A stretch of DNA of 64,000 nucleotides. It comes from Yuukianura sp. NJ FZ-2021 (Eukaryota). Below, one piece after another: positions 1 through 44,400 of this stretch (the stretch's first letter is position 1; every line of letters starts with the position of its first letter). Location: contig CM102287.1 in NCBI GenBank assembly GCA_046563655.1, positions 3,720,001-3,784,000 on the forward strand, given 5' to 3'. The position numbers and the translations under genes were made by a program. The notes beneath the pieces are model-generated. The model did not search any database and was not told the DNA's origin. It worked only from the letters and a program-made list of their open reading frames with translations.

Positions 1-3000
1 CGTCAACTACGTGAAAATGATGACTACAGAGAAATGGAACAAGCACGGGATACTGCAGCGCATCGTCAACTGCGTACTCAGGTTCATGATGAGCCCTGGG
101 AGTCGGTGGTTGAGGTCTTCGAAGAAAAATGCAGGGAAGGCCCTTCACATATCTGTATCTCCTGTGGTGGACTTTGGTTCAAGAAATCTATCAAGCAGCT
201 GCGGCGATCCGACTGTACTCGATACGATGACAACTTTCTGAACGCTGTTTTCTCTACGCAACTGGAAGGAAACTTTTGTAATACTTGTCATGCTGCAGTT
301 AGATCTGGTCGAGATTCACGCTTGGCGCTTACCAATGGACTCAACTTTCCGGTCATCCCTTCAGAGGTTTCGTCTTTGACGCGTCTGGAAGCTCGTTTAG
401 TTTCACCATACCATGTTTTCCAGGCGATTTGGGCTGTACAAGGACAGCATGGTACAGTTTAACTGTTCATAAATAAGCTCAAAATTTGATTAGTTTTGCT
501 AATAACAATATTTGCAGGTCAATTGAAGACGAAAGGACGGATTGTGAATGTTCCAGTTTCCGTGACAAATATTGTTCAAAGTCTGCCCCGCCTCCCTTCA
601 GACGATTCAGTCCTGCATCTCCGGCTGGCCCGTCAGATGCATGTGGAGAAGAACTACACGTCTGGAAATATACGTCCACAAAAAGTAGTTGACGCTGCTA
701 AAGTTTTATGTCAATCACCTTTGTACTCTCAACATGGGATATCAGTTTCGAATTCCTGGATCGCGGATTCTCAAGAATTGAATTCCTTTGACTCAGCCAT
801 GGAGAGTCAGCTTGAAAACTCTCATATAATTGCGAACGAAGAAAGTCCGGACGCTGAAACCGAAGACTCGACAGCGGGTGAGACGATGCTAACAGATGCC
901 TCGGGGCTTCGGATGGCCCCCGCTGAGGGTAATCGGCCTGTTTCTGTTCTTCTGGATGACGACGCTATATTTCTAGCCTTTCCTCAAATATTCGGCGGAG
1001 AAAAGCTCAATCCAATGTATGCCGGCAAAAAAATCTCAAAAGCTGACATGTTCATGTCGTTTGCAAGGAACAAAGACCGACGTGCTGCCGAGTCAGTGGA
1101 TTTCCTCTTGTACATGGCGAAGACTCTAGAAATTGCACGAATATCTAGCAATCGCACCATTCACTTGAGGAAACGAAAAATAAATGGTGAGCATATCATT
1201 CCAACTGCGGGACAAGTCTTGCACCAGACTTACGTTGATGGCCTCATCAAGGACGACAACGCTTATAAAGTCTTGTCCGGAATACGGAACGCAGGAGTAC
1301 ACTGGAAGAATGAAGGCAACAAAGTTCGAGCGATGATACGTACGTTTGGGATTGCCACATTGTTTGTCACGATTAGTGCTGCAGAGTTGAAGTGGAACGA
1401 GCTGTTGGTGTTATTGAAGAAAGTTCTGGACGGCATCGACATTTCTGAGCAGGAAGCCCAAGAATTGTCCACTTCTGAGAAAGCGTTGTTGATTCAGCGT
1501 GATCCAATCACATGCGCGCGGTACTTTGACCACCGTTACTCCGCTCTGAAATCTACTTACAGATCTCGAAATGGGCCTTTTGGTAATCGTGAAATCCGAC
1601 ACTTCTACGAAAGAGTGGAGTTCCAGCACCGAGGAAGCCCCCATGTGCATGCAATGTTTTGGCTCTCAGACCCACCAATTTTCAATCCAGAGAATGAATC
1701 GCATGACGAAGTGACTAGTTTCATTGACAGTATGATAACATGCCGTACAGACTACCCTCCGGAGGATCCAATCACTGGTCTACTAACTCTCCAGACTCAT
1801 CGCCATACACATACTTGCTACAAGCGAACACACAAGGGAGTTAAATGTCGTTTTGGAATACCATTCTTCCCAATGGATCAAACTCGCATCCTTTTACCAC
1901 TGGACAACCCGGCAGACTACAAGGAACTCAAGCTACGGCATAAATTGATTCGTGACTTTTTGGAAGCTCAAATGCCGGACGCGGGAATGTCATTTACACA
2001 ATTTCTAGGCGCCATAGTTTGCGATCTAGCTCTGTATTTACGAGTGATTCGGTCTAAACTAAAGAAGCCACATGTGTTTTTGAAACGTAAACCGAGCGAA
2101 GTTTATATCAACGCCTACAATGAAAAGATTTTACGGTTGCAAAAATCCAACATGGATATTCAATTTATCCTTGATCCATACGCCTGCTGCAGCTACATCG
2201 TTGATTACATCAATAAGAGCAATCGAGGTCTTTCAGAACTCTTGAGAAATGTTGTGGACGAAGTGAGAAAAGGGAATACTCCTCTCAAGGATAGTCTGCA
2301 GATGATTGGTGCCGCCCACAACTTGAATAGCGAAATTTCTGCCCAAGAGGCTGCTTACAATGTGCTCCAAATGCCAATGAGCTATTCGTCTGAAAAGTGT
2401 GTCTTTGTTCAGACTGGGCCAGAAAGCCATCGAACAAGAATGTTGAAGCCGCAAGTGGATCTATCTCAAATGGACCCGGATGACCAAAATATTTTCTTCG
2501 CGAGTCCAACCGACCATTACGCTCAGCGGGCAGTTGCATTGGAGTCGTTAAATCTTGCCCAATTCTCCGCCTGGTTTGAGTTTTCAAAAACATTAAGACG
2601 AAAGATTGGCGATCCAGACGAAGAGAATGACGCACCACCTCCAGAAGAAATGGGAACTGAAGTTTACAAATTGCGCGACGGGTCTGGATATGTACGAAAG
2701 AGGAAATTTGCAAAGGTAATCCGTTTCGTGCGCTACAACAAGGAAAAAGATCCGGAAAACTTTTTCCGAGAACTCTTGATGCTTTATAAACCCTGGAGAG
2801 ACGAGGAGAAAGAATGCGGAGAAAATATAGATTGTCAAAAAATTGTGGCGGAAAACCTAGACTTGATAACCAGCAATAGAAAGGAGTTCAATTTTTTTGA
2901 CGACTGCATACTTGATGCTGCCATGGAAGAAGTGCTGACAAGGCCACCAGAAGATGAAGTTGAATTGGATGAAAACCAACCTTCCGTAGATGACCTGCGC

Positions 3001-5393
3001 GAGTATCGTCTAGAAGATACATCAGGCACGAACGCAGTTGACTTTGGAAGCTACGAAAGACGGCCATTTGCAGAAAGTTTCAAGAATCCGCAATTGACTT
3101 CAAATGATGAGTACTGGTCGCTACTAGCTTCTTTGAACGATGAACAGCGAGACTTGGTTTACCACACCTTCGATCACGTGAAGAGAAAAGAAGGTTCAGC
3201 ATTTCATATCTACTTGAAGGGAGGTGCCGGTGTGGGCAAATCCCATGTCATCAAAACACTCTTCCAAGGATTGGTCCGAATTTTTGGTTCTGACCTCAAC
3301 CGTAATCCGGACAAAATCTCGGTCCTCCTCGTCGCTCCAACTGGGAAAGCCGCATTCAACATCGGAGGCTCCACACTACATACGGCATTTCAGCTACCAG
3401 TTAACCAACGTGAAGCTGGATCGCTGTCTGCAGATATATCTAATACAATGGCTGCGACTTACTCAGAGCTAAAGGTTTCACTCTCTCACATGTGCTTCTG
3501 ATTGTTAACTGATAGTAATTGAGATTACTAATTTACAGATCGTGATCTGCGATGAGATCAGTATGGTGGGTGAACACCTTTTGGAACAGGTGGACAAGCG
3601 CCTGAGAGATTTGTTTCAACCAATTGCACCTTTCGGGGGAATCTCTTTCATTGCCGTTGGTGACTTCTACCAGCTACCACCAGTTCTGGCTGTCCCGTTG
3701 ACGCATGGCACGATGAGCAACTCCATTTCATCTTTATTCCATCGGCCTCTTTGGCACCACTTTCTTGTGCACGAGTTGACCACAATCATGCGCCAAAGCG
3801 AAGATATCGCCTTTGCTGTGGCCCTCAATAACATGGCAAGAGGAATGATGACTGATTCAGATAAGGAACTGATGCGAAGCCGGTGCTTCGACACCCTGCC
3901 AACGGAAGTGGCGGAACTGAGACCTATCCACTTCTTCCAGACCAATGCTGCAGTGACCGCGTTCAACGAAATGTTCCTTCAGCAGATGCCAGGAGAACTG
4001 ATCCTCAGCAGAGCTACCGATAGTGTTCGTGGTGATCTCCCTCAGACGTCAAGAGTCCGACTTCTGCAACGGTTTCAAACGAAACCGCTGAACGAAACAA
4101 TGGGCCTTCCCATGGAACTTCAATTGAAAATTAACGCTCGTTATATGATGACCAACAACGTCGATTGTGCGGACGGATTAGTAAATGGTGTAACTGGTAT
4201 ATTACGAAGAATCGATCTTGGTGTGGCGATAAACGACCCTAGCGACCGTATTCCACTGCGACTATGGATAGAATTTGAAGACGCACGCAGTGGCCAGCAA
4301 TTACGTTGCCGGTACCAATCAATTGCAGACAATTTGGGCGTTGAGTCAACTTGGACGCCAGTGGAGCTACTCACACAAGAGATACATCAAAAGAATGCCA
4401 GCATAAAAATCACACGGAAGCAGTTTCCACTTGTTCCTGCAGAAGCAATCACCATTCATAAGAGCCAAGGAATCACGTGTCAAGCGTAAGTATATAATAA
4501 GTATTCCAATTTATTTTACAATTTAAGCATTCCAATTTATATTGTGCAGTGCTGTACTCCATATTGATCGTACTCGCCACATTTCTCGAGCTTTGATCTA
4601 CGTCGGCTGTTCTCGACCTACGAAAGCCAGTGGCCTTTACATTATGGGGGACTTCAGGCCTCCTAAACCAATTTCACCGACAAGTTCTCTCGCCTTGGAA
4701 ATGGCTCGTCACGAAACCATGAAGCTGGTCCCAGTCTTTCAATCGCTTCACAAAAGGGATGATGGTTTAATCCAGTTCCTTTACCACAACGTCCAGTCAT
4801 TGCCAAAGCATTCCGCAATTTATTCTTCGGATGCAAGTTACAAAATGAGCGACATTCTTCTCTTTGGTGAAACATGGACTCTGCCGGAAGACAATGTCAC
4901 AATTGGAGATCATGTGAAAATCTGCAGTGTCGATTGTGTGACAGAAAGGCGACCACTCGGAGCCAGAATTTATTTGCGGCAGCATTTGACAAATCGCATC
5001 CTGAGTACTACTACTAGATTTGTCGAAGATGAGCATGGAAGTTGCAGCTGTGTAGCCATGAATTTTGCTGGAACAAACGTAATTGGAATTTACATCAGCC
5101 CACGTTTTTGTTGGTGTCTCTTTACCTCCATAATTTCATCTCTAATCAACTCCCTTGGTGGCTCAAGGACGATCGTCGCCGGAGACTTCAACGTTAATTT
5201 CAATCTCATTGCTTCAGCTGAACGCAAGTCGATGTTGGATCTTGGACTACAACTTCGTTCTACTGACTTGCCTACGACAAAGTTCGGTACCCAAATCGAC
5301 GCGGTCTTTGCTTCATTTGAATTAGATGCGATTGGATTGTACACGTCCGCGACATCTATCCACGAGCCCATTTGGGCACGGTTCTCTCAGTAA
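1..5393 (+). CDS. Helentron transposase: CxxC region + HUH Rep + PIF1-like SF1 helicase + C-terminal AP-like (EEP) endonuclease; 4 exons visible, 5'-partial
   Basis: Exons ~<1-451, 518-3474, 3539-4486 and 4550-5393, joined by short GT-AG introns that keep frame. Motifs: CISC/CNTC; Rep YERVEFQHRGSPHVH (the S is typical of Helentrons) and YIVDYINKS; Walker A GGAGVGKS; APTGKAAFNIGGSTLH; Walker B DEISMV; GDFYQLPPV; QFPLVPAEAITIHKSQG; YVGCSR; endonuclease HNVQSL, ETW, YISP, GDFN. Confidence 0.92.
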
Positions 5394-5845
5394 CAGCTTC
5401 AGTGCTTCAATAATTAAAAGTGACTAATTCCTGATCTTCATAACAGTTATTCCAATCCAACAAAGGATGCAAGTCTAAATAATAATACAATTCATATACT
5501 GGCTTCTCAAGAAATGTTTCGGCAATAAAAATTTGTTTCTCTTCAACAAGTTTCCCTATGTAAATGCTACGAAGAATTTTCAAGTAAAGTGCCTTTTTCG
5601 ATTCCACATAATAGGTAGTTAATAAGAAAATTCAACTTTAACTTTAGCCTTTAACTGGAAAACAAAGCTTCATAAAGCTGGGCAAAGGAATTGCTAATTT
5701 GTAATTAACGGTTATTCAGAAACTACAAACCTCTTACTAAATATTTTTGTTGTATTTATTGTTATAAGTAAAGATTAAATTTCATTTTTTTTAATTAATC
5801 ACTTTGTATGAGAATCGATTACGATTTTGTTTTAATAGTCGATTA

Positions 5846-7088
5846 TTAATGTTGTAAGATTCGATTAAGTGTTTCAGCTTCGGCGGCTTCAAACCACTCT
5901 GACAAGTCCTTTGCCAAGTTGTGATCCTTTCCCACTAAGATCAAATCGCCAGGATTGCAGTCAATTGAGTTGACACCATTGTAACTAGAAATCTTCACGA
6001 GCTTGAACAAGATAATTTCAAAAGGAGCAACTTGCACGGTTTCGGTCATATCATTCCATAGCTTTGCAGTAAACTTTCCAGTCTTGTCCACAAGAGTAAG
6101 TTGACGAAGTCTGCATGTTGGGAACTCTTTGACATCTTCAATTTCAATTACCAGACCCGCCATGTCAACATATTGCCCGGCTGACATCAATTTGAGGTCT
6201 TCCGAGTCGATCGGAGTGATCTTTACTACATGAGCAGCTCCTTTGGGTGCAGTGATGACGGTGGTTTCAGTGCTACTGGCATCAAAGGATGAGTTTGTCA
6301 ATTTATTTCTGTTGTCCTTTGGCCGCAGTAAAAAGTTTTCGATTCGCACAAAAGCGTTGATCTGAAACAGATAATCTGAGAATTATTAACATATTGTGAA
6401 AATAGTTTGCTATTACCTGAAGCAGGGACTCCCATTGTGGTTTCATTACTCCGAATAACGTGAACTGGATCTCCCCGGACTCGTCACCAAAAACAAAATG
6501 CTGCAGTTGGCCTCCGTTCCCGTACGCCATTGGTCGTGCAACCTTCAACACGAGGACTTCGATTACACGAGATGTAACTGGAAGGTTAGGATGCAGCTGC
6601 TTCACAGCGATCACGGGAAGTTCAGCTGGGTCCTCTTTTGATTTCACTTGAGCTTTTTCAATCTGGCTTTTCCACTGCTGAAACGGCGACATGCAGCTTT
6701 GAGTACCGCTAGAACCAGGCATGGGTTCAATCAGAGCGGATCTACTTTGATTTCCTTAATAAATAAAAATGATTAGTCATACTACTGTAAAAGCGACATT
6801 GGTTTTCAAAGTACATTTAACAATTACCTGAAGGTTGTACATTATGTTCCGCACTTGAAGTATTGGATTCAAGGCTCTCACTCACATCACTGGCATTTTG
6901 CGCTTGATCAATAGTAGCGTCACACTTTTCGTTTTCTATTAAATAAATGAACGATTTTCAAAAAATGTATATTTACGATGTTGAAAATTTGTTCTATTTT
7001 AAGAATTACCATCTGTGTCTTGCAGTTTCAGAACCTTCGGAGCAGGTTCGCCTTTGGTATTAGAGCACCCCTTCTTCTTAGGTGACAT
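5846..7088 (-). CDS. RPA70-like two-OB-fold ssDNA-binding protein (Helentron cargo), 4 exons
   Basis: ATG at 7088 (MSPKKK, NLS-like); exons ~7088-7010, 6938-6828, 6755-6418 and 6362-5846. OB-fold-like strings LQHFVFGDESGEIQFTLFG and YVDMAGLVIEIEDVKE...RLRQLTLVDKTGKFTAKLWND resemble RPA70 DBD-A/B. Confidence 0.8.
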
Positions 7089-7669
7089 ATTGTCCCTTTA
7101 CGAGTAGATACTTGACAATGATGTTGAAAAGTTACTAAGATTTAATGGAGGTCACTTTGATCAAGGCAAATCTGAACGAACTTCAACGGACTAAATCGGC
7201 TGCAAAATGGTTTTTGTTAACAAATTCGAAACGTATTTTAGGACTAATTCTTATAAACATTAAAAAATAAACATTGGTTTTGTTGTGATGACGACTTCTT
7301 TACTATATTCGTATATACATAATTTTGTAATTAACTAATTTATTTTATATCATTCGAATAGATAAAAATTTAAAAAATGTCGTCAGACAGTTTTGTTGCT
7401 TCATTCGTGTTCAATTTCTATATATTTTTACATTCAAACATGTTTTTTGTTGAGAAAAGTTAACAAAGTTTGAAGTATTCCAAAATATAATTTTTTTTAC
7501 CTTTGTACCTCATGTACCGTCATCATAACAACTGGGTAGATGTATTGATGTTTACAAACAATTATGGAAATCTTCTACAATTTTAACATTTTCTGTACAT
7601 AAAATTGATTTGAAAAAATCAAGTTGATTTAATTCTAAAGTTAGCTATCAAATAAGATTTAAAGCTAAA

Positions 7670-8704
7670 ATGGCTTTTATATTCTTTAATGGTATTGAAA
7701 GTTACGAGCTAAATAGGATCATCGCCGAAGACAAAGGCCGGTACGGCGAAAAATTCAAGTTCCTTGAAGATGGAGAAGCAATTGTGGAGATGGAAGGATA
7801 CACAGTGGGCGTAGCAGAGTCACGGAAACAATTATACTCCAGAAAAGTTGTCTCATTTCCAAACTTACAGCAAGAAGACCGAAAAATTTTCATGCCGATA
7901 GCTTTCCTGACACACGGAGAAGTTGAAGAAACTGCTCATGATCACCTATCATTACTGTATGTTGACGTGGACGCAGGAAGAGCCATCTACTTTTGTCAAC
8001 TAAAAGGTGACATTTATGAGAAGGCGGTAAAAACAAATATGATGATTCGGTTGAGAGCCTGCTACCCTGGAGCACCAATCAAGTTCACGAAATATCGTTT
8101 TCCAAACAACGTACGCCAATACTACCCAGATTCATGTGCATTATTCGCTATATGGATTATGCGTCAGGTCATCAAGTTACAGGGACAAAATTTGGATTCA
8201 ATTCGCCTTCCGACATTCGCTCAGATGCATTCGCTGAGAAAATCATTAAACTTGCAACAGGACCAAAAACAAACGTCAAACAATAATCGAAGTCTCACCG
8301 AAATTGACAAACTTTCAAAATCGAAAGTAAGCCTAAATTTTGTTTTAAAGATGTTTTGTTTACTAAAGCGTACTTTTTGTTTTGTTTCGTCTCAGAAAAA
8401 GGTATACTTGCAGCAGAACATGTCAACTCAGGAAGGAAATAATACTGCGGAGAATTGTGATCCGGATGTAGAGTCAAGTCAAAGCAATGGTGCTAAGAGG
8501 GTCAGATTCACAATTCAACAATCTCAGTCATTTTCCAATTCTTTTGGCATTGCTGCCGCAATCAGTACAACATCCTTAGCTTCAATTGGTACAGACACCA
8601 AAACGGACTTCAGAGCTGGCGTTCTGAAAGATGTGCAACTTTCTACATCTCTGAACGTCGTCAATCGATCGATCTCCAAACGTAGTTCTCAACGACACTA
8701 CTAA
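7670..8704 (+). CDS. Ulp1/SENP-like CE-clan cysteine protease-like protein (Helentron cargo)
   Basis: IFMPI...HDHLSLLYVD...IYFCQL...RQYYPDSCALFAIWIM follows the His / (Asp) / Gln-x-Cys order of C48 peptidases. Probable in-frame 69-nt intron 8327-8395; AATAAA at ~8823, before the Helentron terminus. Confidence 0.6.
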   Translation: MAFIFFNGIESYELNRIIAEDKGRYGEKFKFLEDGEAIVEMEGYTVGVAESRKQLYSRKVVSFPNLQQEDRKIFMPIAFLTHGEVEETAHDHLSLLYVDVDAGRAIYFCQLKGDIYEKAVKTNMMIRLRACYPGAPIKFTKYRFPNNVRQYYPDSCALFAIWIMRQVIKLQGQNLDSIRLPTFAQMHSLRKSLNLQQDQKQTSNNNRSLTEIDKLSKSKVSLNFVLKMFCLLKRTFCFVSSQKKVYLQQNMSTQEGNNTAENCDPDVESSQSNGAKRVRFTIQQSQSFSNSFGIAAAISTTSLASIGTDTKTDFRAGVLKDVQLSTSLNVVNRSISKRSSQRHY

Positions 8705-9049
8705 CAACGCATGTCGTCGCACTTTGTCTAATGTTTGTGCTAACCAGAAATCAATGAGTCACAAAATGATATATTACAGTTGAAACTTATTAGTCTTTAG
8801 TTTAGTTTTCTTATATTTTTGAAATAAAACGTCCGCTACGGTTTGAAAAGAATTAAACACTACATTTTTTAAAGTCCTATAAATAGTCAACTTTCTCCAG
8901 AAGACCAATGCTCAACCCTTGAGCATTGCCCTACCTTGTTTATTTTTTCAATGGATTCGGCACCCATTTTTCTTCGGGGGAAAATATTTTAAACGCATAT
9001 TTTTAACGTTCTTCGCGGGGCCCATAAAGCTTCAATTTCCCAAGACCTT

Positions 9050-12096: not shown

Positions 12097-12114
12097 AATT
12101 CGGATATCGTTTTT

Positions 12115-12624
12115 AGTCTTCTGGAGACGCATGTCTACGACATGCTGAAGAAGACTATTGATACGACTTTGTCTGTCTGTCCGTAACGTTTTTTAGGACC
12201 CGTTTTTTAGGAGCATTGCCATGACAACATCGACAATACATTATGTGCATCTTCCTCAACAAATGAAGAACATGAATCAAGAACGATGTTCGACCAACTT
12301 CTTCTTAACTTTCAATTTTGTGCATTTTGTGCACACCAAATTAACAACATCAATTCAATACACATGTTTTGGGGCTCAAAACTTTAACATGATTTTGGTT
12401 CAATTAAAAGGTAGATTTGCCAACACAATTTTGGTGCAACTCATGCACAAAATAGAACCTCACATCCTCAATGAAAATTTTGAGCAATGTTTTGGTGCAT
12501 CAATTCCGTGAAAACGGTTTGTCAGTTCTTCCACAGTTTTAAGTCACACCGATTTAAGTCGCATCAATTGTCAACTCCCTCCAGAAGACCTATGCTCAAC
12601 CATTGAGCATCGCCCTACCTTGTT
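12115..12624 (+). mobile_element. HINE/DINE-1-like non-autonomous Helentron, internally deleted
   Basis: 5' AGTCTTCTGGAG + palindrome GCATGTC-TAC-GACATGC + GTCT microsatellite; 3' CTCCAGAAGAC + hairpin + CCCTACCTTGTT; T-rich flanks with no TSD. Confidence 0.88.
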
Positions 12625-12644
12625 TATGTAAATTCTTTGCTTTG

Positions 12645-13394
12645 AGTCTTTTGGAGACGCATGTCTACGACATGCTGAAGAAGACTATTGATACGACTTA
12701 CTTTTCTGCCCGTCCGTACGTTAGTAAAGTTTTTAGGACCCTTTCCACTGAAAGATAAGCACCATCGCAGTTGGGGAGTCATGTGAGGCTCAAGAGTTTT
12801 CAGTAGGTCTACATTCCACTCAAAGTGTTAAATGAACAATGTGGAAGTTGGCGGCTACTTTACGTACCCGAAGAATCGCAGAAATCCCTCAAATCTTCTC
12901 AAATCAACTGTACGTTGTGGGGTAGGGGTCAAATATCGATTCTTTAAGATCAAAATCATAAAAATTTCTTATGAATGCAAATTTGAACCCTCCCACTTGC
13001 TGCTTACGTACTACGGATTTAAGCTGGATTTTCTATCCTCTGATAAGCAACAAATTAACAACGTAAATAAATGTACTGCCAGAAAATGACCGGGTCAAAA
13101 GTGCGTTGTTTAAATATATTTTGAGTGTAATCGAAACCAAAATGTTTTCGGGAAACGACTACAATGCGTGTGCGTAACGTGGCCGCCCATTTCTACGTTG
13201 TTAATTCTAGAATTTTAGTGCAATGTAGACCTAATAAAAACAATTGAGCCAAACATAACCCCCCGAACAAATTGGGGCTTACGTTTTAGTGCAAAGTATC
13301 CTAAAAAATGTGACAGACGGACGGACGGACGGACGGACAAAGTCGTATCACTAGTCTTCTTCAGCACGTCGTAGACGTGCGTGTCCAGAAGCCT
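12645..13394. mobile_element. Two diverged HINE 5' fragments in opposite orientation (12645-~12870 +; ~12909-13394 -)
   Basis: Both carry the HINE 5' terminus/palindrome and GTCC/GGAC repeats and match the 5' half of 25784-26838. Confidence 0.75.
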
Positions 13395-14642
13395 AAAATG
13401 GTTTTGCTCAGCGTAGGAATGTCGTACAGTGACCCACAATATATCAAACTTTAGGGAAAGATTTGATTTCTGCCAATAAAGCCAAATTGCGACAAAGGCT
13501 GTCCACCCGTAAGAAAAAAAATGCCTAAAAAAATCCTCGCTCCCTCCCTCCGTCAATTAGAAAGGGAAAGAAATTCCCTATTTTCTCATTGACGGAGGAA
13601 GGGAGCGAGGATCTTTTTTTGAGACACCTCTTCTGATGGGAGGAAAGCCTTTGGCGCAATTTGTCTTTTTTTACATCTGTTAAAGGAACGGAACAGTACA
13701 TAACAATGAAACGAATCCGTCATAATTGGGAAGCACACAGTAAAACTTGTTGTTCGAATTTTTAGACGCGATATTGGTGCACTTTCTTTTGAAGTGTTGG
13801 CAACACCCCCTCCGCAGTAAGGACGGGGATGCGGATTATCGGGGTTTTCCCGGAGAATCACCGGGGATTTGGGGATAACCCCAATTTGCCGGGGAAAGCA
13901 TCAAATTCCCGGGGAACAGCCATCACTGTATCTTTTGTAATTGAAGTCAATTTCAACCTAATCAACAATGGTGCGCCTAATTGGTAACTGAAAATTTAGT
14001 ACGGAGTTCCGTGCACCGTTTCTCATCGCATTGTTACAGGTATTGTTGACTGTCTTCGTCATTTCAATTGTGAAATGTCTCCAGCAGACTTGTGCCCAGC
14101 CCTGCCTAACCTCACCAGTGGTATTTTTTGGTCAGTTTCTTTAGAGTCTTCAACATTTTGTCTGTTTTCTTAGAAACGATCTCTAATTTCTAGGTGAATT
14201 TACAACCCTACCGAAACTATCCTTTTCTTACTTGTGACCTGGTCAACCCTACAGCTGACCTCTACTCGCTATAGTACCCCCTTCTCTGCCATTCTCGGCA
14301 GAACATCCTTCCATTATACTTCTTTCTATCGACCATCCACTTATTGTCTTCATGTGTCCGTCCACCTCAACATAGGCGACTCTGGTGTCCGTTGATCACT
14401 AGAGACACAACTGTCTTGTGTCCGTCGTTGCTTTGCAATAAAAGCGAATCTAACAATTCCTTTATTGTGGTACGCCTTGCTACCGTCTTTGCTCCACCAG
14501 GAGCTAGTTCATTAATCGGTAAAAACTGCCATCTACTTGGAGTCACAGCAAAGGTCAACTATATCATTTCTGTAAGGTCGGTCTGATAATGAGTCATTGC
14601 CAATGACTTAGTATTCCGGTCGGCCCGCTTATGTTTAATTCT

Positions 14643-25747: not shown

Positions 25748-27027
25748 CCTTTTGAGGGCTAAATACAACTAAAAAGTCGTTTTAGTCTTCTGGAGACGCA
25801 TGTCTACGACATGCTGAAGAAGACTATTGATACGACTTTGTCTGTCTGTCCGTTCGCTTTTTTAGTATCTTTTGCGCTAAAACATAAGCTCCATTTTGTC
25901 CGGGGGGTTATGTATGCCTCAAGTGTTTTCATTAAGTCGCATTTGCACTCAAAGTGTTATATTAACAACGTGGAAATGGGCGGCCACTTTATGCACCCTA
26001 AGTGCAGTCGTTTCCCGGAAACATTTTGGTTTCGATTACACTCAAAATATATTTAAGCAACGAAGTTTTGATCCGGTCATTTTCTGGCAGTATGTTTAAT
26101 TACGTTGTTAAATTAAGACTTAACTAGGGGGTAGAAAATCTGGCTTAAACTCATAATATGGAAACAGTGAATGGGAGGATTCAAATGTGCATTAAGAAGA
26201 AACTTTTTATTATTTTGAATTTAAAGAAACGATATTCGACCCCTACCCCACAACGTACAATTTTGTGCATGATAAGCACTTAAAAGCGGTTGCACACAAA
26301 TCCCAACTTGTGCATTTACTGGAACCGACTATGACTTTTAAGAAACAATATTTGACCCCCTCCCCTCAACGTTCAATTTTGTGCATAATGAACACAATTG
26401 AAGGTTTGTGCAGTTTTGAGAACAATTGTGCAACAAAATAATTTTGAACAGAGTAAAATATGAGCTTAATTTGAACAACATTTTGATGCAGTTGTCCGCT
26501 AATAATGCATTGCCATGGTAACACGGACAATACATTGTGCGCATTTTGCTCAACAAATTAACATCAATTCAGTGCACATGTTTTGGGGCTCAAAACTGGA
26601 ACATGATTTTGGTGCAATTAAAAGGTAGATTTGCCAACACAATTTTGGTGCAACTCATGCACAAAATAGAACCTCACATCCTCACTGAAAATTTTGAGCG
26701 ATGTTTTGGTGCATCAATTCCGTGAAAACGGTTTGTCAGTTCTTCCACAGTTTTAAGTCACACCGATTTAAGTCGCATCAATTGTCAACTCCCTCCAGAA
26801 GACCTATGCTCAACCCTTGAGCATCGCCCTACCTTGTTTTTTTCGGATCTCAGGAGCCATCTAACGACTCTAGTCGTCTGCAACTAGGTTTAGAAAACCG
26901 CTGGGGAAAACAAAAAACCGTTCTTGTGCCATAGCAACGTATTATTGCATGCTTTGCATCGGTTTTTTGGGGTAAATTAGTATCGTCTCAGCAGCAAAAT
27001 ACAAAAAAAAATTCAGGCATCAAAAGG
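25748..27027 (+). mobile_element. piggyBac-like MITE interrupted by a HINE
   Basis: CCTTTTGA...TCAAAAGG-TTAA; the halves match the uninterrupted copy at 27533-27753; the HINE sits in a T-run. Confidence 0.8.
25784..26838 (+). mobile_element. Full-length HINE (non-autonomous Helentron, ~1.05 kb)
   Basis: Both Helentron termini present; near-identical to the inverted copy at 37340-38924; internal TGCACAAAAT-type repeats. Confidence 0.9.
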
Positions 27028-36752: not shown

Positions 36753-39700
36753 TTATGACTGATGATGATGCTGCTGATGATGCTGATGCATTGTCTTCTT
36801 GGGAGTCTGATCCTTGCTGTAATTACTAATCACTTTCTTCAGTTCTCCAGTATTGCTTCCGGAATTGGCCGAGTGAGAAGCGTTGTTATTTGGTGTTAAA
36901 TGATTGTATTGTGGCGGCATGTAGTAGCACGTAGCTGGATATACAGTTCCAGCACACTTTCCAGCTTGAAAGCTATTGTACAATAACAATATTTTAATCA
37001 ACTTCTGTAATTAAATTGGATTGGTCTTGCATTCAAGCCATTAGGAATCTTACTCAGAGGCATAGAGCTGGTACGCAAGTCTTTGTATGAGTTGAAGAGT
37101 GAGGCGACGCTCATGTCCCATCAAACACACTGTTGACGAGTCAACGACATTATGAAGTGTCACCAAGAAAGCATACCGAAGCCTTCCGGAAACTCCAGAC
37201 ATGTGATTTGCCACAAATGTCCTCAGTTTGACTTCTTGTTGCTCAATCTGAAAAAAAATGAAAAATTAATACATTTTAGATGATCTAGGAAGGAACAGCA
37301 ATCAGTTTAACTCCAAAGGATCGAAAAATATCATTTCAAAACAAGGTAGGGCGATGCTCAAGGGTTGAGCACAGGTCTTCTGGAGGGTGTTGACAATTGA
37401 TGCGACTTAAATCGGTGTGACTTAAAACTGTGGAAGAACTGAGAAACCGTTTTCACGGAATTGATGCAAAAAAACATCGCTCAAAATTTTCAGTGAGGAT
37501 GTGAGGTTCTATTTTGTGCATGAGTTGCACCAAAATTGTGTTGGCAAATCTACCTTTTAATTGCACCAAAATCAAGTTCCAGTTTTGAGCCCCAAAACAT
37601 GTGCACTGAATTGATGTTCTTAATTTGTTGAGCAAAATGCGCACAATGTATTGTCCGTGTTACCATGGCAATGCATTATTAGCGGACAACTGCATCAAAA
37701 TGTTGTTCAAATTAAGCTCATATTTTACTCTGTTCAAAATTATTTTGTTGCACAATTGTTCTCAAAACTGCACAAACCTTCAATTGTGTTCATTATGCAC
37801 AAAATTGAACGTTGAGGGAGGGGGTCAAATATTGTTTCTTAAAAGTCATAGTCGGTTCCAGTAAATGCACAAGTTGGGATTTGTGTGCAACCGCTTTTAA
37901 GTGCTTATCATGCACAAAATTGTACGTTGTGGGGTAGGGGTCGAATATCGTTTCTTTAAATTCAAAATAATAAAAAGTTTCTTCTTAATGCACATTTGAA
38001 TCCTCCCATTCACTGTTTCCATATTATGAGTTTAAGCCAGATTTTCTACCCCCTAGTTAAGTCTTAATTTAACAACGTAATTAAACATACTGCCAGAAAA
38101 TGACCGGATCAAAACTTCGTTGCTTAAATATATTTTGAGTGTAATCGAAACCAAAATGTTTCCGGGAAACGACTGCACTTAGGGTGCATAAAGTGGCCGC
38201 CCATTTCCACGTTGTTAATATAACACTTTGAGTGCAATGTAGACTTAATGAAAACACTTGAGGCATGCATAACCCCCCGGACAAAATGGAGCTTATGTTT
38301 TAGCGCAAAAGATACTAAAAAAGCGAACGGACAGACAGACAAAGTCGTATCAATAGTCTTCTTCAGCATGTCGTAGACATGCGTCTTGTGAGGTTCAGGG
38401 CTCACACGGCTTGAGAGACAAAGGATGATAGTGCAGAAAAAATAAGTGACCGAGTGGGATTCGAACCCACGTCTTTCTCCAATCCGGGGAGACTGCACTG
38501 CCCTTATGCTATCAGGCCACAACTTGCACAGGATAGAATCGGAAGGCTACCATAACAGGCACTGTCCATTCCATACACCTCTATCCTTGGCGGTTGGGAG
38601 TGGGACTGTTCCCAAACGCCACATCACCCGCCCCTCAAGCCCCCTCACGGCCCAACCGTCTTTCGGCACCAAGTGTGAGGTTCAGGGCTCACACGGCTTG
38701 AGAGACAAAGGATGATAGTGCAGAAAAAATAAGTGACCGAGTGGGATTCGAACCCACGTCTTTCTCCAATCCGGGGAGACTGCACTGCCCTTATGCTATC
38801 AGGCCACAACTTGCACAGGATAGAATCGGAAGGCTACCATAACAGGCACTGTCCATTCCATACACCTCTATCCTTGGCGGTTGGGAGTGGGACTGTTCCC
38901 AAACGCCACAGTCTCCAGAAGACTAATTCTTCAGCATGTCGTAGACATGCGTCTCCAGAAGACTAACAGGTTTGATTGAAAAGGTCATCGACACGTCGCT
39001 TGAAACCACTGTGCTGCAGTGCAGTATGTTAGGACAGAGGATTAAGAGCGACACAATGCAATTGATAGACTGCTGTTGGGTAACCCGTTTTCCGCGGGGG
39101 GTAAAGTGAATTATTCCATTACATTAATTTCAGAAATCTCTCTAGAAGTTGTGGAACTCGCGCCGAATTCAACAAAAGCATTCGTGTGTTATTTTTATAA
39201 AAACTGAATCAGTTTTACTGATTCAATCATGCGCTAAAAAAAAGAAATTGCGGAAATAGTTAACCATGTAGCGTACGAGGGGAATCCGTATCACCGTATG
39301 TATCCCTTCTAAAAGTTAATAAAAAGTTAATTAACCTTCTTTCGGCCACTTACCTCAGGGAAATCAATGAAAAATCGTGAGCACATGTATCGCTGGAGTG
39401 GAACTATGGAATGCACATCGGCCGGCCTGTAACCACGAACAACCAGGTTACAGAATTTGAGTAGCCCTCCACCCCGAATTTCTTCTGGATTATGTGTGGC
39501 AATTAGACCATGATGGAGGTGGAATAGAGCTTCGCCAAAGTCCCCGTAAACAGATTCACCAATCACGGTAGGAAAGAACCTGCAAATTAGAAAAAAATTT
39601 AACTCAATTCAACCTAATAAGTTTAGAGAAACTTAGAACGTTTCAAAGAAAAAAACCTTGAACTCACCTGGCGGACATTGGAATTGTGGCACACTTGTAA

Positions 39701-40547
39701 AACAGTAACAATGAGTCCAAAATAACTGAAAATTAAAGTCAAAATTAGGAAATGTCAAACACCATCAACGTCAAAACAATTCAAGTACCTTGGAAGGAGT
39801 CAACGGAGAATTCGTACTGCCGACGCATCGTGTCAACAAATTTGAGCTCAACAGAACAACTGCGACTACTCTTGCCGTCACTACAGCTGGAATCAGCCGA
39901 CGGCGAACTTGGTGGGGTGAAGGAATTGTTTTGGCAATTTCCAAGAGCAATCAGTGACCATCGATCACCATCACAAACGCGCACCATTTTGGAAACGTAG
40001 GCTTCCTTCAGGGCACAAGAGGACATGCGTGCTCGACTCACCTAAAGCAGGAAAAAAGCATAAGAATTAAAATTAAGACATCAAAACTAATGAAAATTAA
40101 ATTCTGAGAAAGTGATTAGCATCTCACTTGAGGTGGGAGGAGATCAAGGATAACATCCAGAACGGCCGTCTTCACGCGTTCAAAGTGTTTAGGCGTCGAG
40201 AGCTCCATTCCAAAGATCAGATCGATATCATTGTACGAGAATTCGGCATTTGACTTGATGAGGCCGGGCGCGGAAGACGTCTGCGTGGCGTCCGTGCTGA
40301 TGTTCTGGACAAAGAATGTAGGGATCGACTGGGGAGATACTGATGAAAGAATGGTAGTTGTCGTAGAGCCTTTGACTTCGATTCGACTCGTCACTGGAGT
40401 TTCGTCGGTAACTTGACAAGAACACATGAGCCCTTCGTCCCCTGCGGATTGGTAACTGAGGCCACAAAGAAAACAAGGATCCGGTTCCGCTGCCTCGTTC
40501 AAGGCATGACTCGCTGCACCACCATTCCTCAGTCGAACGTCACGAAT
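36753..40547 (-). CDS. TENT5: Terminal nucleotidyltransferase 5 (FAM46/TENT5) homologue; 5' exon(s) not identified
   Basis: Exons ~40547-40128, 40041-39789, 39725-39668, 39579-39354, 37247-37053 and 36972-36753. Motifs [104 protein letters not shown]. Confidence 0.92.
38446..38520 (-). ncRNA. tRNA-like Pol III unit in TRIM LTR (copy 1)
   Basis: A-box TAGCATAAGGG, stem TCTCC-CCGGATT-GGAGA, T-arm GTGGG-TTCGAAT-CCCAC, then TTATTTTTT. Acceptor stem is imperfect and U33 is missing, so this is not a functional tRNA. Confidence 0.75.
38733..38807 (-). ncRNA. tRNA-like Pol III unit in TRIM LTR (copy 2)
   Basis: Identical to 38446-38520. Confidence 0.75.
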
Positions 40548-41117: not shown

Positions 41118-41199
41118 GCACCACATTAGCTTTTCAATTCCCTTAAGGTGTGCGGACACCCTGGAAACTGGGGGTCAAAATGCCGCTGTAACACATGAA

Positions 41200-41485
41200 A
41201 TGAAAAATGATCTCGGACATCGTAGAAAGGTCATACAATGACCCACAATATATCAAACTTTAGGAAAAGACTTGATCTTAGTTTCTCGCTAAAAAAAAAT
41301 TACAAAGTTTTAGTTCCATCTATGTAAATATGGAGGTGGAATGTTTGGGTCCATTTTTTTTACAGTTACAACTAAAATTTTGTAATTTTTTTTAGCGAGA
41401 AACTAGATCAAGTCTTTTCCTAAAGTTTGATACATTGTGGGTCACTGTATGACATTCCTACGCTGACCCAGACCGTTTTTCAATT
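41200..41485. repeat. Foldback MITE; arm fragment also at ~13400-13468
   Basis: TGACCCACAATATATCAAACTTTAGGAAAAGACTTGATC and its reverse complement. Confidence 0.7.
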
Positions 41486-44400
41486 TCAATGTCGCAGCCT
41501 CAGAAAAATTGTTGACAAAACCCAGACGACGGCAACCGAACTTGTGTCAGTATTTTGTTTGTTTGAAAGTGCATACTTTTTTTGATCATCTTTGCACTGA
41601 TCCTTTTTCACCACTCACGACGGTGTTTCTTTTTGCCGATGTCTGCATGTTTTACTAACTGCAAAAACTCGGTTGTCGTGGTTACTAAATTCAACGATTA
41701 TAGTTTATTAGACGCATACCACACGTCCTTAATCAAGAAAAAAAACGAAATGAACAGCAATGGAACTGAAATTAATGCGAGTAGATGCACAATTTCTTCA
41801 CAAGTAATGGATGAGAACCAACAGTAATTTGAAGCTGAACTGATTAAGTGAAAGGCGGGTGGAGGAGTGAAAACGAAATACTAGATTAGAATTTGTTGAT
41901 CCAGGGCTAAAATAAGACCGGGAACCTGTGATTGGAGCTCCGGCAACAAGTGACTGTTCCTGGACAAAAGGCAGCTCCCGACTCATGTACTTGCACACAA
42001 TAATATTCCGACATATGTTTCCGCAGTTTCTCTTTTCCGCCTTTTTATCCCTTGAGCCACCAAGTGAAAGCCCAGTACTTTCACTGGTCTATTAAAGCAA
42101 GAACCATCTCTCTCTCTCATCTCTCCTCCCACAAAAGAAATTGAATGTTTTCTCAGAAAATGAACAAAAGCCCGCACATCTCCGCTCTTGTCACAACCTT
42201 CCGATTCACTACTTGAGCACAACAGCAACGATAGCAACCAGATTCAACTTTAACATCTCCTCCTTCCCTAGAAAGATGAAGCATCGTGAAGAAAACAAGG
42301 CCCAATCACCACGCAACTTTCTCCCACGCAAGCTTCCTTGACAACCAAATCGTCTTCTTTAAGGTTAAGGTTAGGTTAACCTATTGACAAACCTTGCTCC
42401 CACGCACAGTCATAAACTTAAAAAAAAAGAAAGTTTATTTGCGTCTCCCAAACTTTTCCAATCAGCTTCTAATGTAGAGCAGGAAACACTTTACTTTCTC
42501 CCCATTCTCCAATCACCAAACAACTTTCAGTTCAATTCATATGAAAAGGACGACGCAATGAAAAATAGAATTTGGCTAATGTTAACTTCGCATTTGCAGA
42601 TTTTGTGTCATCAGAGCACTCTCAACGGCAACGCCCAATTGCCTCCAAGTGTCAGCCATCAAGTTATAAATTATGACGCACATAGCTTGATTTTCTTCTT
42701 GTTAGAAAACGCGCAGTTTCCGTATAACTCTTTTTGCAATAATTTAAATTCTTCCCACTTACGGATTGTTTCCATTATGGGAAAATTCCGCATTAGGAAC
42801 AATCGACAAAAATTTTCGTTAGAATTTGGTACTAAAAGTTGTGACAAGATAAAAGATATATTTTTGTTAATTTAAACTGGTTTATGGAATGCTCCAGTGT
42901 TGCAAGGTTAAAAAAAAAAGCATTGTTTCGCACATGACTCTCATGGTTGTTTCTAAACATTCCAAAAGCCTTTTAATGGCACTGTCACATCCATATTCGA
43001 AATGACAATAGATGACATTGAGCAGATTTTGATCACTAGATACAATCTTCGTCTTATTCATCTTCCTAATGTGTGTGTTGGAGTGACCTTTAATGAATTG
43101 TGACTGGGTTGTGCGTGGTTTGTTAGTGTTAAGGGAGCGTGACTTTGGGGTTTCCGTCCCTTGCCTGACCATTCATCAACCGCATACTTCCTCGTCCAGT
43201 TTCCTTTTCCCCGGGTGAATTACTAACACAAAACTTCAGCTTCAGTCCAGCGACGAATCCGAGAAAAGAGAAAGTAAAGCCAACCTTTGGCACAATTTTT
43301 GAATTCATCTTGGATAGAATTAAGATAAAAACTTGACCAGTGTATAACATCTTTAGGAGGTCCAAAGGAAGACCAAAATCAAAAATATTTGTTGTAGTAA
43401 AAGAATGTTCAAAGTTCTAAGGTTCATTTCAAGCATTTGGTAAAAGTGGAAATTCGGTTCAACTAGTTCGCTTCCTGTTGATTCGTCTGTTTGAAATTTT
43501 GATGCTTTGGTTTGATTGTTGTGTTTTTGTTGAAAGGTCACAACAATGGGTTTAACAAAGTGCATGTTCCATTCACCCCTTGCTCAAACACGAAGCGTCA
43601 GCACACACAACACCCCCACTTGGTCAGAGGGTGAAATAATAAAAATGTCACGTCAGGTGGAATATCACTTGTAACAACACTTCTGGAGCTCAAAATCCAA
43701 TTCAGGAAGCAGCACTCCAATTTTGAAAAGTTTCGTTGCACGCACCATTTTCAAATTATTTTAAAAGTTTTGAGCCAGAATGACAAAATGGCTGTTTTAA
43801 AAGAAAGAACTCCAATTTTACATAACTTTAAAACGAATTACTGTTAACTTCGTTTGCTTTAGTAGATTTTGTTAGCACTGTTACGGTATTTGATATTCTG
43901 TTGCTACCCTGGGCTCAATTCCAACTTATTGCTGGATGTATTATTTCAGAAATTGCTTGGAAGTGGATCAGTCACATTGGATCTCACCATAATCAAAGGA
44001 CTTCAGATGATCACTTCAGCAGAAGAAATGGGAAATTCTATGCTTCTGTTTCTACTTCAAGGGCTTCTTCAAAATCATCCAATGTTTTATTTTACTCACG
44101 AAGTGGGACTGGCTCCTTCGGTGGGACTCATGAGGTCCCTTGGTATCACATTAAGCGTCTTATGAGTCTCAATGCAACAGGAGAACTACTGAACACAGAA
44201 AATCATACGCTGATATCTCAAGAAATTTCAAAACCCAGAATCATACCTTGCGAACATATAGTCTGTCTTTTCTGAACGATTTTCCAAAATGTATCAAAAT
44301 TTGAGATTTTGAAATCAAGGTTTGAAAGAATATAAATTATCTTCAGGGTAAGTAAAATCAAGTAATGCTAAGATCTTAGCATTACTTAATACTTAACTCG

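Follow-up and report, generated by a model that had tools for sequence, protein, structure and literature searches.

A Helenus-type TRIM with tRNA-like units in its LTRs and varied host-tRNA primer sites in a springtail genome

The window analysed here (64,000 nt of contig CM102287.1, assembly GCA_046563655.1 of Yuukianura sp. NJ FZ-2021) carries on its minus strand a 524-bp non-coding TRIM, made up of a 237-bp LTR, a 50-bp core and a second 237-bp LTR. Among its close relatives in this genome there are exact primer sites for five different host tRNAs, which likely record repeated swapping of the primer tRNA. The probable reading, in our judgement, is a protein-less TRIM of the Helenus (TRIMp3) type, which would be transcribed by Pol III from the tRNA-like unit of its 5' LTR, copied and inserted by Gypsy enzymes, and open to primer swapping. 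The Helenus class is already known and the element alone is modest news; new here are the host class (Collembola) and the primers, and the points worth specialist attention are the exact primer swaps within one family and the mapping of the R region by breakpoints.

Anatomy and classification of the element

All the parts that define a TRIM (two LTRs, PBS, PPT, non-coding core, total under ~1 kb) are present (Table 1). Their minus-strand order is a TGTG...CACA LTR, 2 nt, the PBS, a G-rich tract and the 3' LTR, which the G-rich PPT directly abuts, and GTCT is duplicated on both sides as a 4-bp TSD. Direct-repeat comparison within the window gave 100% identity between the LTRs, so that the identical LTRs and 50-bp internal region of the preliminary description, made from the letters alone, stand. 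Its tRNA-Phe PBS and PPT were likewise found, with a longer PBS than it had claimed, matching 18/18 to L092, one of the two host tRNA-Phe isodecoders found. Its word "minimal" marks no record, since the cores of Helenus are 43 bp in fish (58–60 bp in Lingula) according to the available portions of PMC10886601. AATAAA, ATTAAA and TATAA are absent from both strands of the TRIM. In 6/6 folded variants, the predicted structure pairs U5 with the 30 nt behind the PBS (z from -1.4 to -4.1 against mononucleotide shuffles). Two hairpins lie in U3 at LTR positions 1–37 and 38–95 (window 38910–38816), and the pairing of the first survives sequence changes in a sister family. A tRNA-derived SINE (SINE2) was ruled out as the identity of the element by the paired TG...CA LTRs, the PBS and PPT, and the fixed 4-bp TSD.

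Table 1. Features of the TRIM and of its target (window coordinates)
Feature	Position	Strand	Basis or remark
5' LTR, 237 bp, TGTG...CACA	38674..38910	-	repeat comparison
tRNA-like unit of 5' LTR; A box 38798-38788, B box 38754-38744	38734..38805	-	Rfam RF00005, ARAGORN, sequence
T6 run of 5' LTR, putative Pol III terminator that would need read-through	38724..38729	-	function inferred
PBS, 18 nt, exact complement of the tRNA-Phe L092 end plus CCA	38654..38671	-	tRNA comparison
Leader/PPT, 30 nt, G-rich; predicted to pair with U5, closing the PBS in a loop	38624..38653	-	prediction
3' LTR, same sequence as 5' LTR	38387..38623	-	repeat comparison
tRNA-like unit of 3' LTR; A box 38511-38501, B box 38467-38457	38447..38518	-	Rfam, ARAGORN
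T6 run of 3' LTR, putative RNA 3' end	38437..38442	-	inferred
TSD GTCT, left copy, 4 bp	38383..38386	.	
TSD GTCT, right copy, 4 bp	38911..38914	.	
HINE body; inner palindrome 38366-38382, (GACA)n, 3' sub-TIR 37375-37385, 3' hairpin near 37350-37370	37338..38386	-	98.6% to the HINE at window 25794-26840
Rest of split HINE 5' sub-TIR	38915..38926	-	
Second tandem copy of HINE 5' terminal 40 bp	38927..38966	-	junction without TRIM at G000:C11:290679

Both LTRs hold a 72-nt tRNA-like unit that scores 34.6 bits against the Rfam tRNA model (gathering score 29; host tRNAs reach 51–73 bits) and that ARAGORN calls tRNA-Ser(GGA). An A box and a perfect B box lie in the unit, and 4 nt downstream of it follows a T6 run, the sole run of four or more T on the sense strand of each LTR. 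Judged by standard tRNA anatomy, the unit, with a bulged acceptor stem and an anticodon loop that has neither U33 nor a purine at 37, is unlikely to act as a decoding tRNA, and LTRs of this kind inflate tRNA gene counts through false tRNA-Ser(GGA) calls. The A box of the window copy, TAGCA...GGG, departs from Kojima's commonest TRGCY plus YGG, while the B box GGTTC is present. The profile also picked up two true tRNA genes; with these removed there were 47 distinct units, decayed solo LTRs included, of which 40 have an A box (by a general pattern), 37 a B box and 46 a T4+ run. The A/B-box cassette with T-run proposed earlier is thus found, and its boxes are conserved among copies.

By Kojima's definition, as given in the available portions of PMC10886601, the element is a Helenus (TRIMp3), with tRNA-derived sequence and boxes A and B in its LTRs, a 4-bp TSD and priming by a host tRNA; what had been offered as an analogue is thus the class of the element itself. 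The same portions describe further likenesses in a size below 1 kb, a unit in both LTRs, a PBS and PPT, a presumed Gypsy helper, tandem arrays, primers that vary between families and a probably non-functional tRNA. Differences lie in the host, the arthropods of Kojima's Table S1 being Hymenoptera only, and in the primers, since the Phe and elongator-Met 3'-end primers of the springtail TRIMs do not appear in the Helenus Fig. S2 (PMC10886601, in part). Within the one springtail family (79–95% identity) four primers occur, each with an exact site of 18–19 nt, against ~11–12 nt for the wasp Helenus PBSs listed in that source. The family had been called probably uncatalogued, which holds for Kojima's Table S1 and DataS1, where no Collembola are listed and a string search of the whole supplement file for tggtgccgaa gave 0 matches. 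Cassandra and Ajax also have a Pol III-type promoter within their LTRs (PMC10886601, PMC7215508, both in part) but carry a 5S unit, whereas the unit here is tRNA-like (type 2 promoter); an Rfam search of 37000–40500 gave no 5S match at E<=5. In our literature search, no title dealt with springtail TRIMs or with primer copying within a TRIM family, no paper linked Yuukianura with transposable elements, and TRIMp3 in the present sense occurred only in Kojima 2024.

Copies, primer sites and the candidate helper

The host is a neanurid springtail, with an assembly of 98.7 Mb in 22 contigs. It was placed by its COX1 translation, which matches a record of Yuukianura szeptyckii at 100% identity, the next named matches, to about 84% identity, being from Collembola; homologue searches with GT17 and SAC3 gave no placement. 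BLAST of this genome with the element (best 40 of 147 candidates scored) found at least 13 two-LTR copies at 79–100% identity, besides solo LTRs and many older remnants. The two-LTR copies represent 12 independent sites, two of them (L008 and L009) having common flanks, and the exact LTR start was found 37 times in the genome. The two LTRs are identical in 6/13 copies and differ at 1–2 positions in the other seven, and whole elements are identical at different sites in two cases (L002 = L003, L006 = L007); the family has therefore moved recently. The preliminary description had gone further and called it probably currently active. Recent movement stands, but present-day activity does not follow: the window copy stands at 94% identity to its nearest full-length relative, and contigs from four of the nine listed runs showed no empty allele, none of them bridging the site into the unique right flank (run X1 left it uncovered). 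Contig joints around the HINE end stem from other HINE copies.

Of the 20 family copies tested, 18 have a perfect 4-bp TSD and none a TSD of 5 or 6 bp, and the 4-bp TSD recurs in 11/13 copies of two sister families; counts of older solo LTRs and of sister families, made by BLAST and patterns, are lower bounds. Sister family 1 is ~550 bp long, has a tRNA-like unit of the same kind and also occurs as three-LTR tandems. These tandems sit inside a satellite, and the family (L022, L026, L108, L114, L119, L168, L172) shows two unit versions within near-identical flanks. Sister family 2, the third family, has 165-bp LTRs with the same kind of unit and a 1130-bp four-LTR tandem; its loci are L207 (G000:C4:7633.9-7635.0 kb), L194, L195 and L220.

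For 26 internal regions we looked for matches among 50 host tRNA genes; the Rfam scan for tRNAs listed 58 matches, nine of which were left out (best 63 of 7405 candidates scored). In 22 of the 26, a single host tRNA 3' end is matched over 18–19 nt: every core of the family (13) and of sister family 1 (9) follows it for 18 nt (19 for Lys-CTT) and diverges thereafter. One disrupted copy matches over only 11 nt, and three cores of the third family (L207) match over at most 8 nt among the 50 genes. The 18-nt limit is that of the usual stop of reverse transcription at modified A58. Five tRNA genes are used, namely two Phe isodecoders, elongator Met, Lys-CTT and Lys-TTT, four of them within the family of the window copy. 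That copy has the site of Phe L092, subfamily B that of Phe L076, subfamily C that of elongator Met L140 (an intron-containing gene) and subfamily D that of Lys-CTT, while sister family 1 has Phe L092 or the Lys-TTT isodecoder L240. The matches discriminate between isodecoders (L092 from L076, L240 from L077). The five primer ends differ from each other at 2–7 of 18 bases, on average 5.2 as against 8.5 for all 40 distinct ends, and only 30 of 100,000 random sets of five tRNA ends are as tight.

Because several coordinated substitutions each recreate a host tRNA end, the PBS was likely copied from the priming tRNA, as in retroviruses and unlike yeast Ty1 and Ty3. Retroviruses copy their primer, whereas Ty1 and Ty3 do not inherit its sequence (PMC7472051, in the portions available; an experiment on Ty3 primer inheritance is described in the corresponding part of PMC5371799). 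The likeness to retroviruses and ERVs (ETn, MLV, HIV) lies in the exact 18-nt PBS and in switches between near-cognate tRNAs, such as that of ETn from Lys3 to Lys1,2 (PMC7472051, in part); the difference is that the TRIM here is non-autonomous, with a likely Gypsy helper. In the mechanism we propose, a host tRNA would prime reverse transcription of the TRIM RNA and plus-strand synthesis would copy 18 nt of that tRNA, so that a near-cognate primer would thereby rewrite the PBS. For changes of primer between Helenus families, Kojima calls the mechanism unknown (PMC10886601, in part); the exact, isodecoder-specific PBSs in near-identical subfamilies make this question testable and point to the copying of mis-annealed tRNA. 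Two other ideas on the primer were tried and rejected. Self-priming by the element's own tRNA-like unit would rest on 5 contiguous bases (10 with one bulge, by inspection) against 18, and a Lys/Phe chimera is not needed for the Lys PBS, which host tRNA-Lys-CTT matches 19/19.

The PBS variants might instead have come by recombination with LTR elements that already carried those sites, or a BEL/Pao helper might move the TRIM, and there is in fact a multi-copy BEL/Pao family with the exact 18-nt Phe L092 PBS of the window copy. We find this highly improbable. The leader just behind the PBS is alignable across subfamilies, only the 18 nt and the 2-nt spacer being wholly replaced; the exact 18-nt elongator-Met PBS occurs only in three TRIM copies; and the TSD was 5 bp in the one BEL/Pao copy checked, versus 4 bp for the TRIM. 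The 4-bp TSD, as in animal Helenus, favours a Gypsy element, which is the likely helper on this analysis. The genome contains Gypsy elements that combine PR-RT-RH domains with a Phe PBS, and one of them has an integrase, a 14-nt Phe PBS match and a 4-bp TSD, with LTR ends unlike those of the TRIM. An autonomous element with the TRIM's LTR ends was not found in a search with three patterns (30, 14 and 30 of 35 matches examined as loci); these were TRIMs, chance matches, or elements with different ends (BEL/Pao, Gypsy or pol-less).

Some of these LTR elements have features of their own. BEL/Pao loci with the Phe PBS are L105, L106, L112, L113, L121, L126, L129-L131, L133 and L193, and in one BEL/Pao copy the 453-bp LTRs are identical and there is a single frame of 1714 aa. 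At L189/L186 there are a Gypsy with a third frame of 686 aa behind pol, without Pfam match, and an LTR element of 2 kb that lacks pol; the 161-bp LTRs of the latter are identical, its Phe PBS is complete and its TSD is 4 bp long.

LTR mosaicism and transcription

The window LTR has a mosaic sequence whose breakpoints fall at the tRNA-like unit's borders. It equals subfamily B over positions 1–98 (98/98, in U3), beyond which 21 of 141 columns differ (Fisher p=9e-6). At sites informative between B and C, 7/7 at positions 51–86 follow B and 17/19 at positions 100–234 follow C. Compared with subfamily D, it agrees at 82/82 positions over the unit and T-run, 67/112 in U3 and 43/50 in U5. The breakpoints fall at 87–99, at ~102–103 and before 190, the unit occupying 106–177 and the T6 182–187. 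When first-strand transfer takes place between unlike co-packaged RNAs, the breakpoints fall inside R, and so the mosaic fits a presumed Pol III transcript whose R region is the tRNA-like unit; it could also come from DNA-level conversion or from template switches anywhere in U3.

Pol III transcription from the 5'-LTR unit is likely, and the mosaic breakpoints lend it indirect support. Pol III would initiate ~6–19 nt upstream of the unit, would sometimes pass the first T6, transcribe U5, PBS, PPT and U3, and end at the second T6, giving an R region that roughly corresponds to the unit. Template switches between co-packaged subfamily RNAs would then reshuffle U3, R and U5, and Gypsy enzymes would copy and integrate the product. 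A T6 run is a strong Pol III terminator, and full-length RNA should therefore be a minority product. Cassandra transcripts reportedly begin in the small-RNA unit of the 5' LTR and extend to the one in the 3' LTR, and in arrays they are presumed to read through the LTRs in between; Pol III transcription has been validated only for Cassandra and not for Helenus (PMC10886601, in part). The mosaic LTR predicts both the RNA start (LTR positions 87–100) and the RNA end (the second T-run), which makes the Pol III question testable for Helenus.

A weak hint of RNA that crosses the first T6 comes from Logan contigs of two metatranscriptomes, which cross the T6, PBS and PPT of related elements. The runs, which come from other organisms or strains, supply contigs alone. 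In run X5, 3/3 contigs map to the TRIM (with the B-type PBS), and the HINE flank, though of higher copy number, has none; in two DNA runs the HINE is much deeper than the TRIM. The low-depth pieces of run X7 include HINE sequence, and DNA carry-over is possible there.

Two other accounts of the unit have to be weighed. The genomic RNA of the TRIM might be a Pol II product, started in U3 or arising through read-through from the host, with the unit giving a short Pol III RNA or riding along as a SINE-type passenger. The T6 right behind the unit, which would halt most Pol III in the 5' LTR, speaks for this, and RNA contigs are equally compatible with either polymerase; we nevertheless think it unlikely, given that a TATA box and a poly(A) hexamer are absent and that the unit, with breakpoints at its borders, is the part best conserved between subfamilies. 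Alternatively, the unit might serve mainly as RNA structure, a tRNA mimic acting in RNase P/Z processing, export, stability or packaging, and not only as a DNA promoter. In a MAFFT alignment of 33 units, 89.7% of the cells of a cloverleaf are paired, against 25–49% in slid controls, although the cloverleaf was drawn by the author from the same sequences; 7 of its 18 pairs show double-sided changes, which among such related units amount to few independent events. The non-decoding loop motif CC[CT]GGA is kept in 41/47 units. RNA-level selection on the unit is accordingly possible, but folding z-scores of single units are weak (-0.7 to -2.0), and the position of the A/B breakpoint, 6 nt or more upstream of the mature +1, speaks against a 5' end made by RNase P in that event. 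As the main role of the unit, we consider RNA mimicry distinctly unlikely.

We can only tentatively combine these threads into a Pol III-made RNA that has as its R region a tRNA mimic under structural selection, with retrovirus-like primer inheritance carried out by Gypsy machinery. If this combination is true, such elements could switch very rapidly between near-cognate primers (Phe, elongator Met, Lys), and perhaps from helper to helper. Primer inheritance in animal Gypsy elements and programmed read-through of a Pol III terminator would then both have a natural record and a minimal test object in this 524-bp element.

The HINE target and other features of the window

The TRIM is flanked by a ~1.1-kb HINE with sub-TIRs, a 5' palindrome, (GACA)n and a 3' hairpin. 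A TRIM-free copy, 98.6% identical, lies at window 25782–26840, and the HINE family has dozens of copies, a more diverged one of them at window 12113–13398. The 40-bp HINE 5' end occurs twice in tandem, and the TRIM interrupts the inner one, between the sub-TIR and the inner palindrome. This split had been described correctly, while the second 40-bp end, which lies outside the TRIM, had been missed; because of it, sub-TIR and inner palindrome of the HINE are both still intact. Other loci (L033, which is G000:C11:290679, L054 and L056) also have tandemly duplicated HINE 5' ends, and an identical 40-bp junction is found at two loci.

The 11-bp sub-TIR of both HINE ends is also found at window 8895, with the same hairpin (~8895–8941), behind Helentron ORFs for Helitron_like_N, PIF1 and RPA at 490–6382. 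The Helentron spans 490–8941, with its 5' end ~1.5 kb before the window (L191), and has an endonuclease-like ORF without Pfam match. Sub-TIRs, 5' inverted repeat, microsatellite, 3' hairpin and T-rich ends are all as in the HINE/DINE-1 and Helentron elements of Thomas et al. 2014 (PMC4067079, in the portions available), as is the autonomous Rep/helicase and RPA partner with common ends; set against the same portions, the target HINE differs in its duplicated 40-bp 5' end and otherwise in nothing important.

The landing of the TRIM in a HINE end was likely a matter of chance. Of 20 TRIM family copies just one is in a member of this HINE family, the very copy by which the TRIM family was ascertained, and targeting of HINEs was therefore rejected. 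Another copy (L002) sits in the (GACA)n of a different DINE-like element.

Elsewhere in the window, a SECIS_1-like Rfam match at 40250–40312 (plus strand; 26.6 bits, under the gathering score of 35) is probably due to chance, and a long imperfect palindrome at 41185–41498 (arms of at least 94 nt, 83%) is MITE-like. In the assembly as a whole, two equally scoring intact copies of mitochondrial COX1 lie in large contigs (G000:C4:7555540-7556880 and C10:1261863-1263203), as NUMTs or through mis-assembly.
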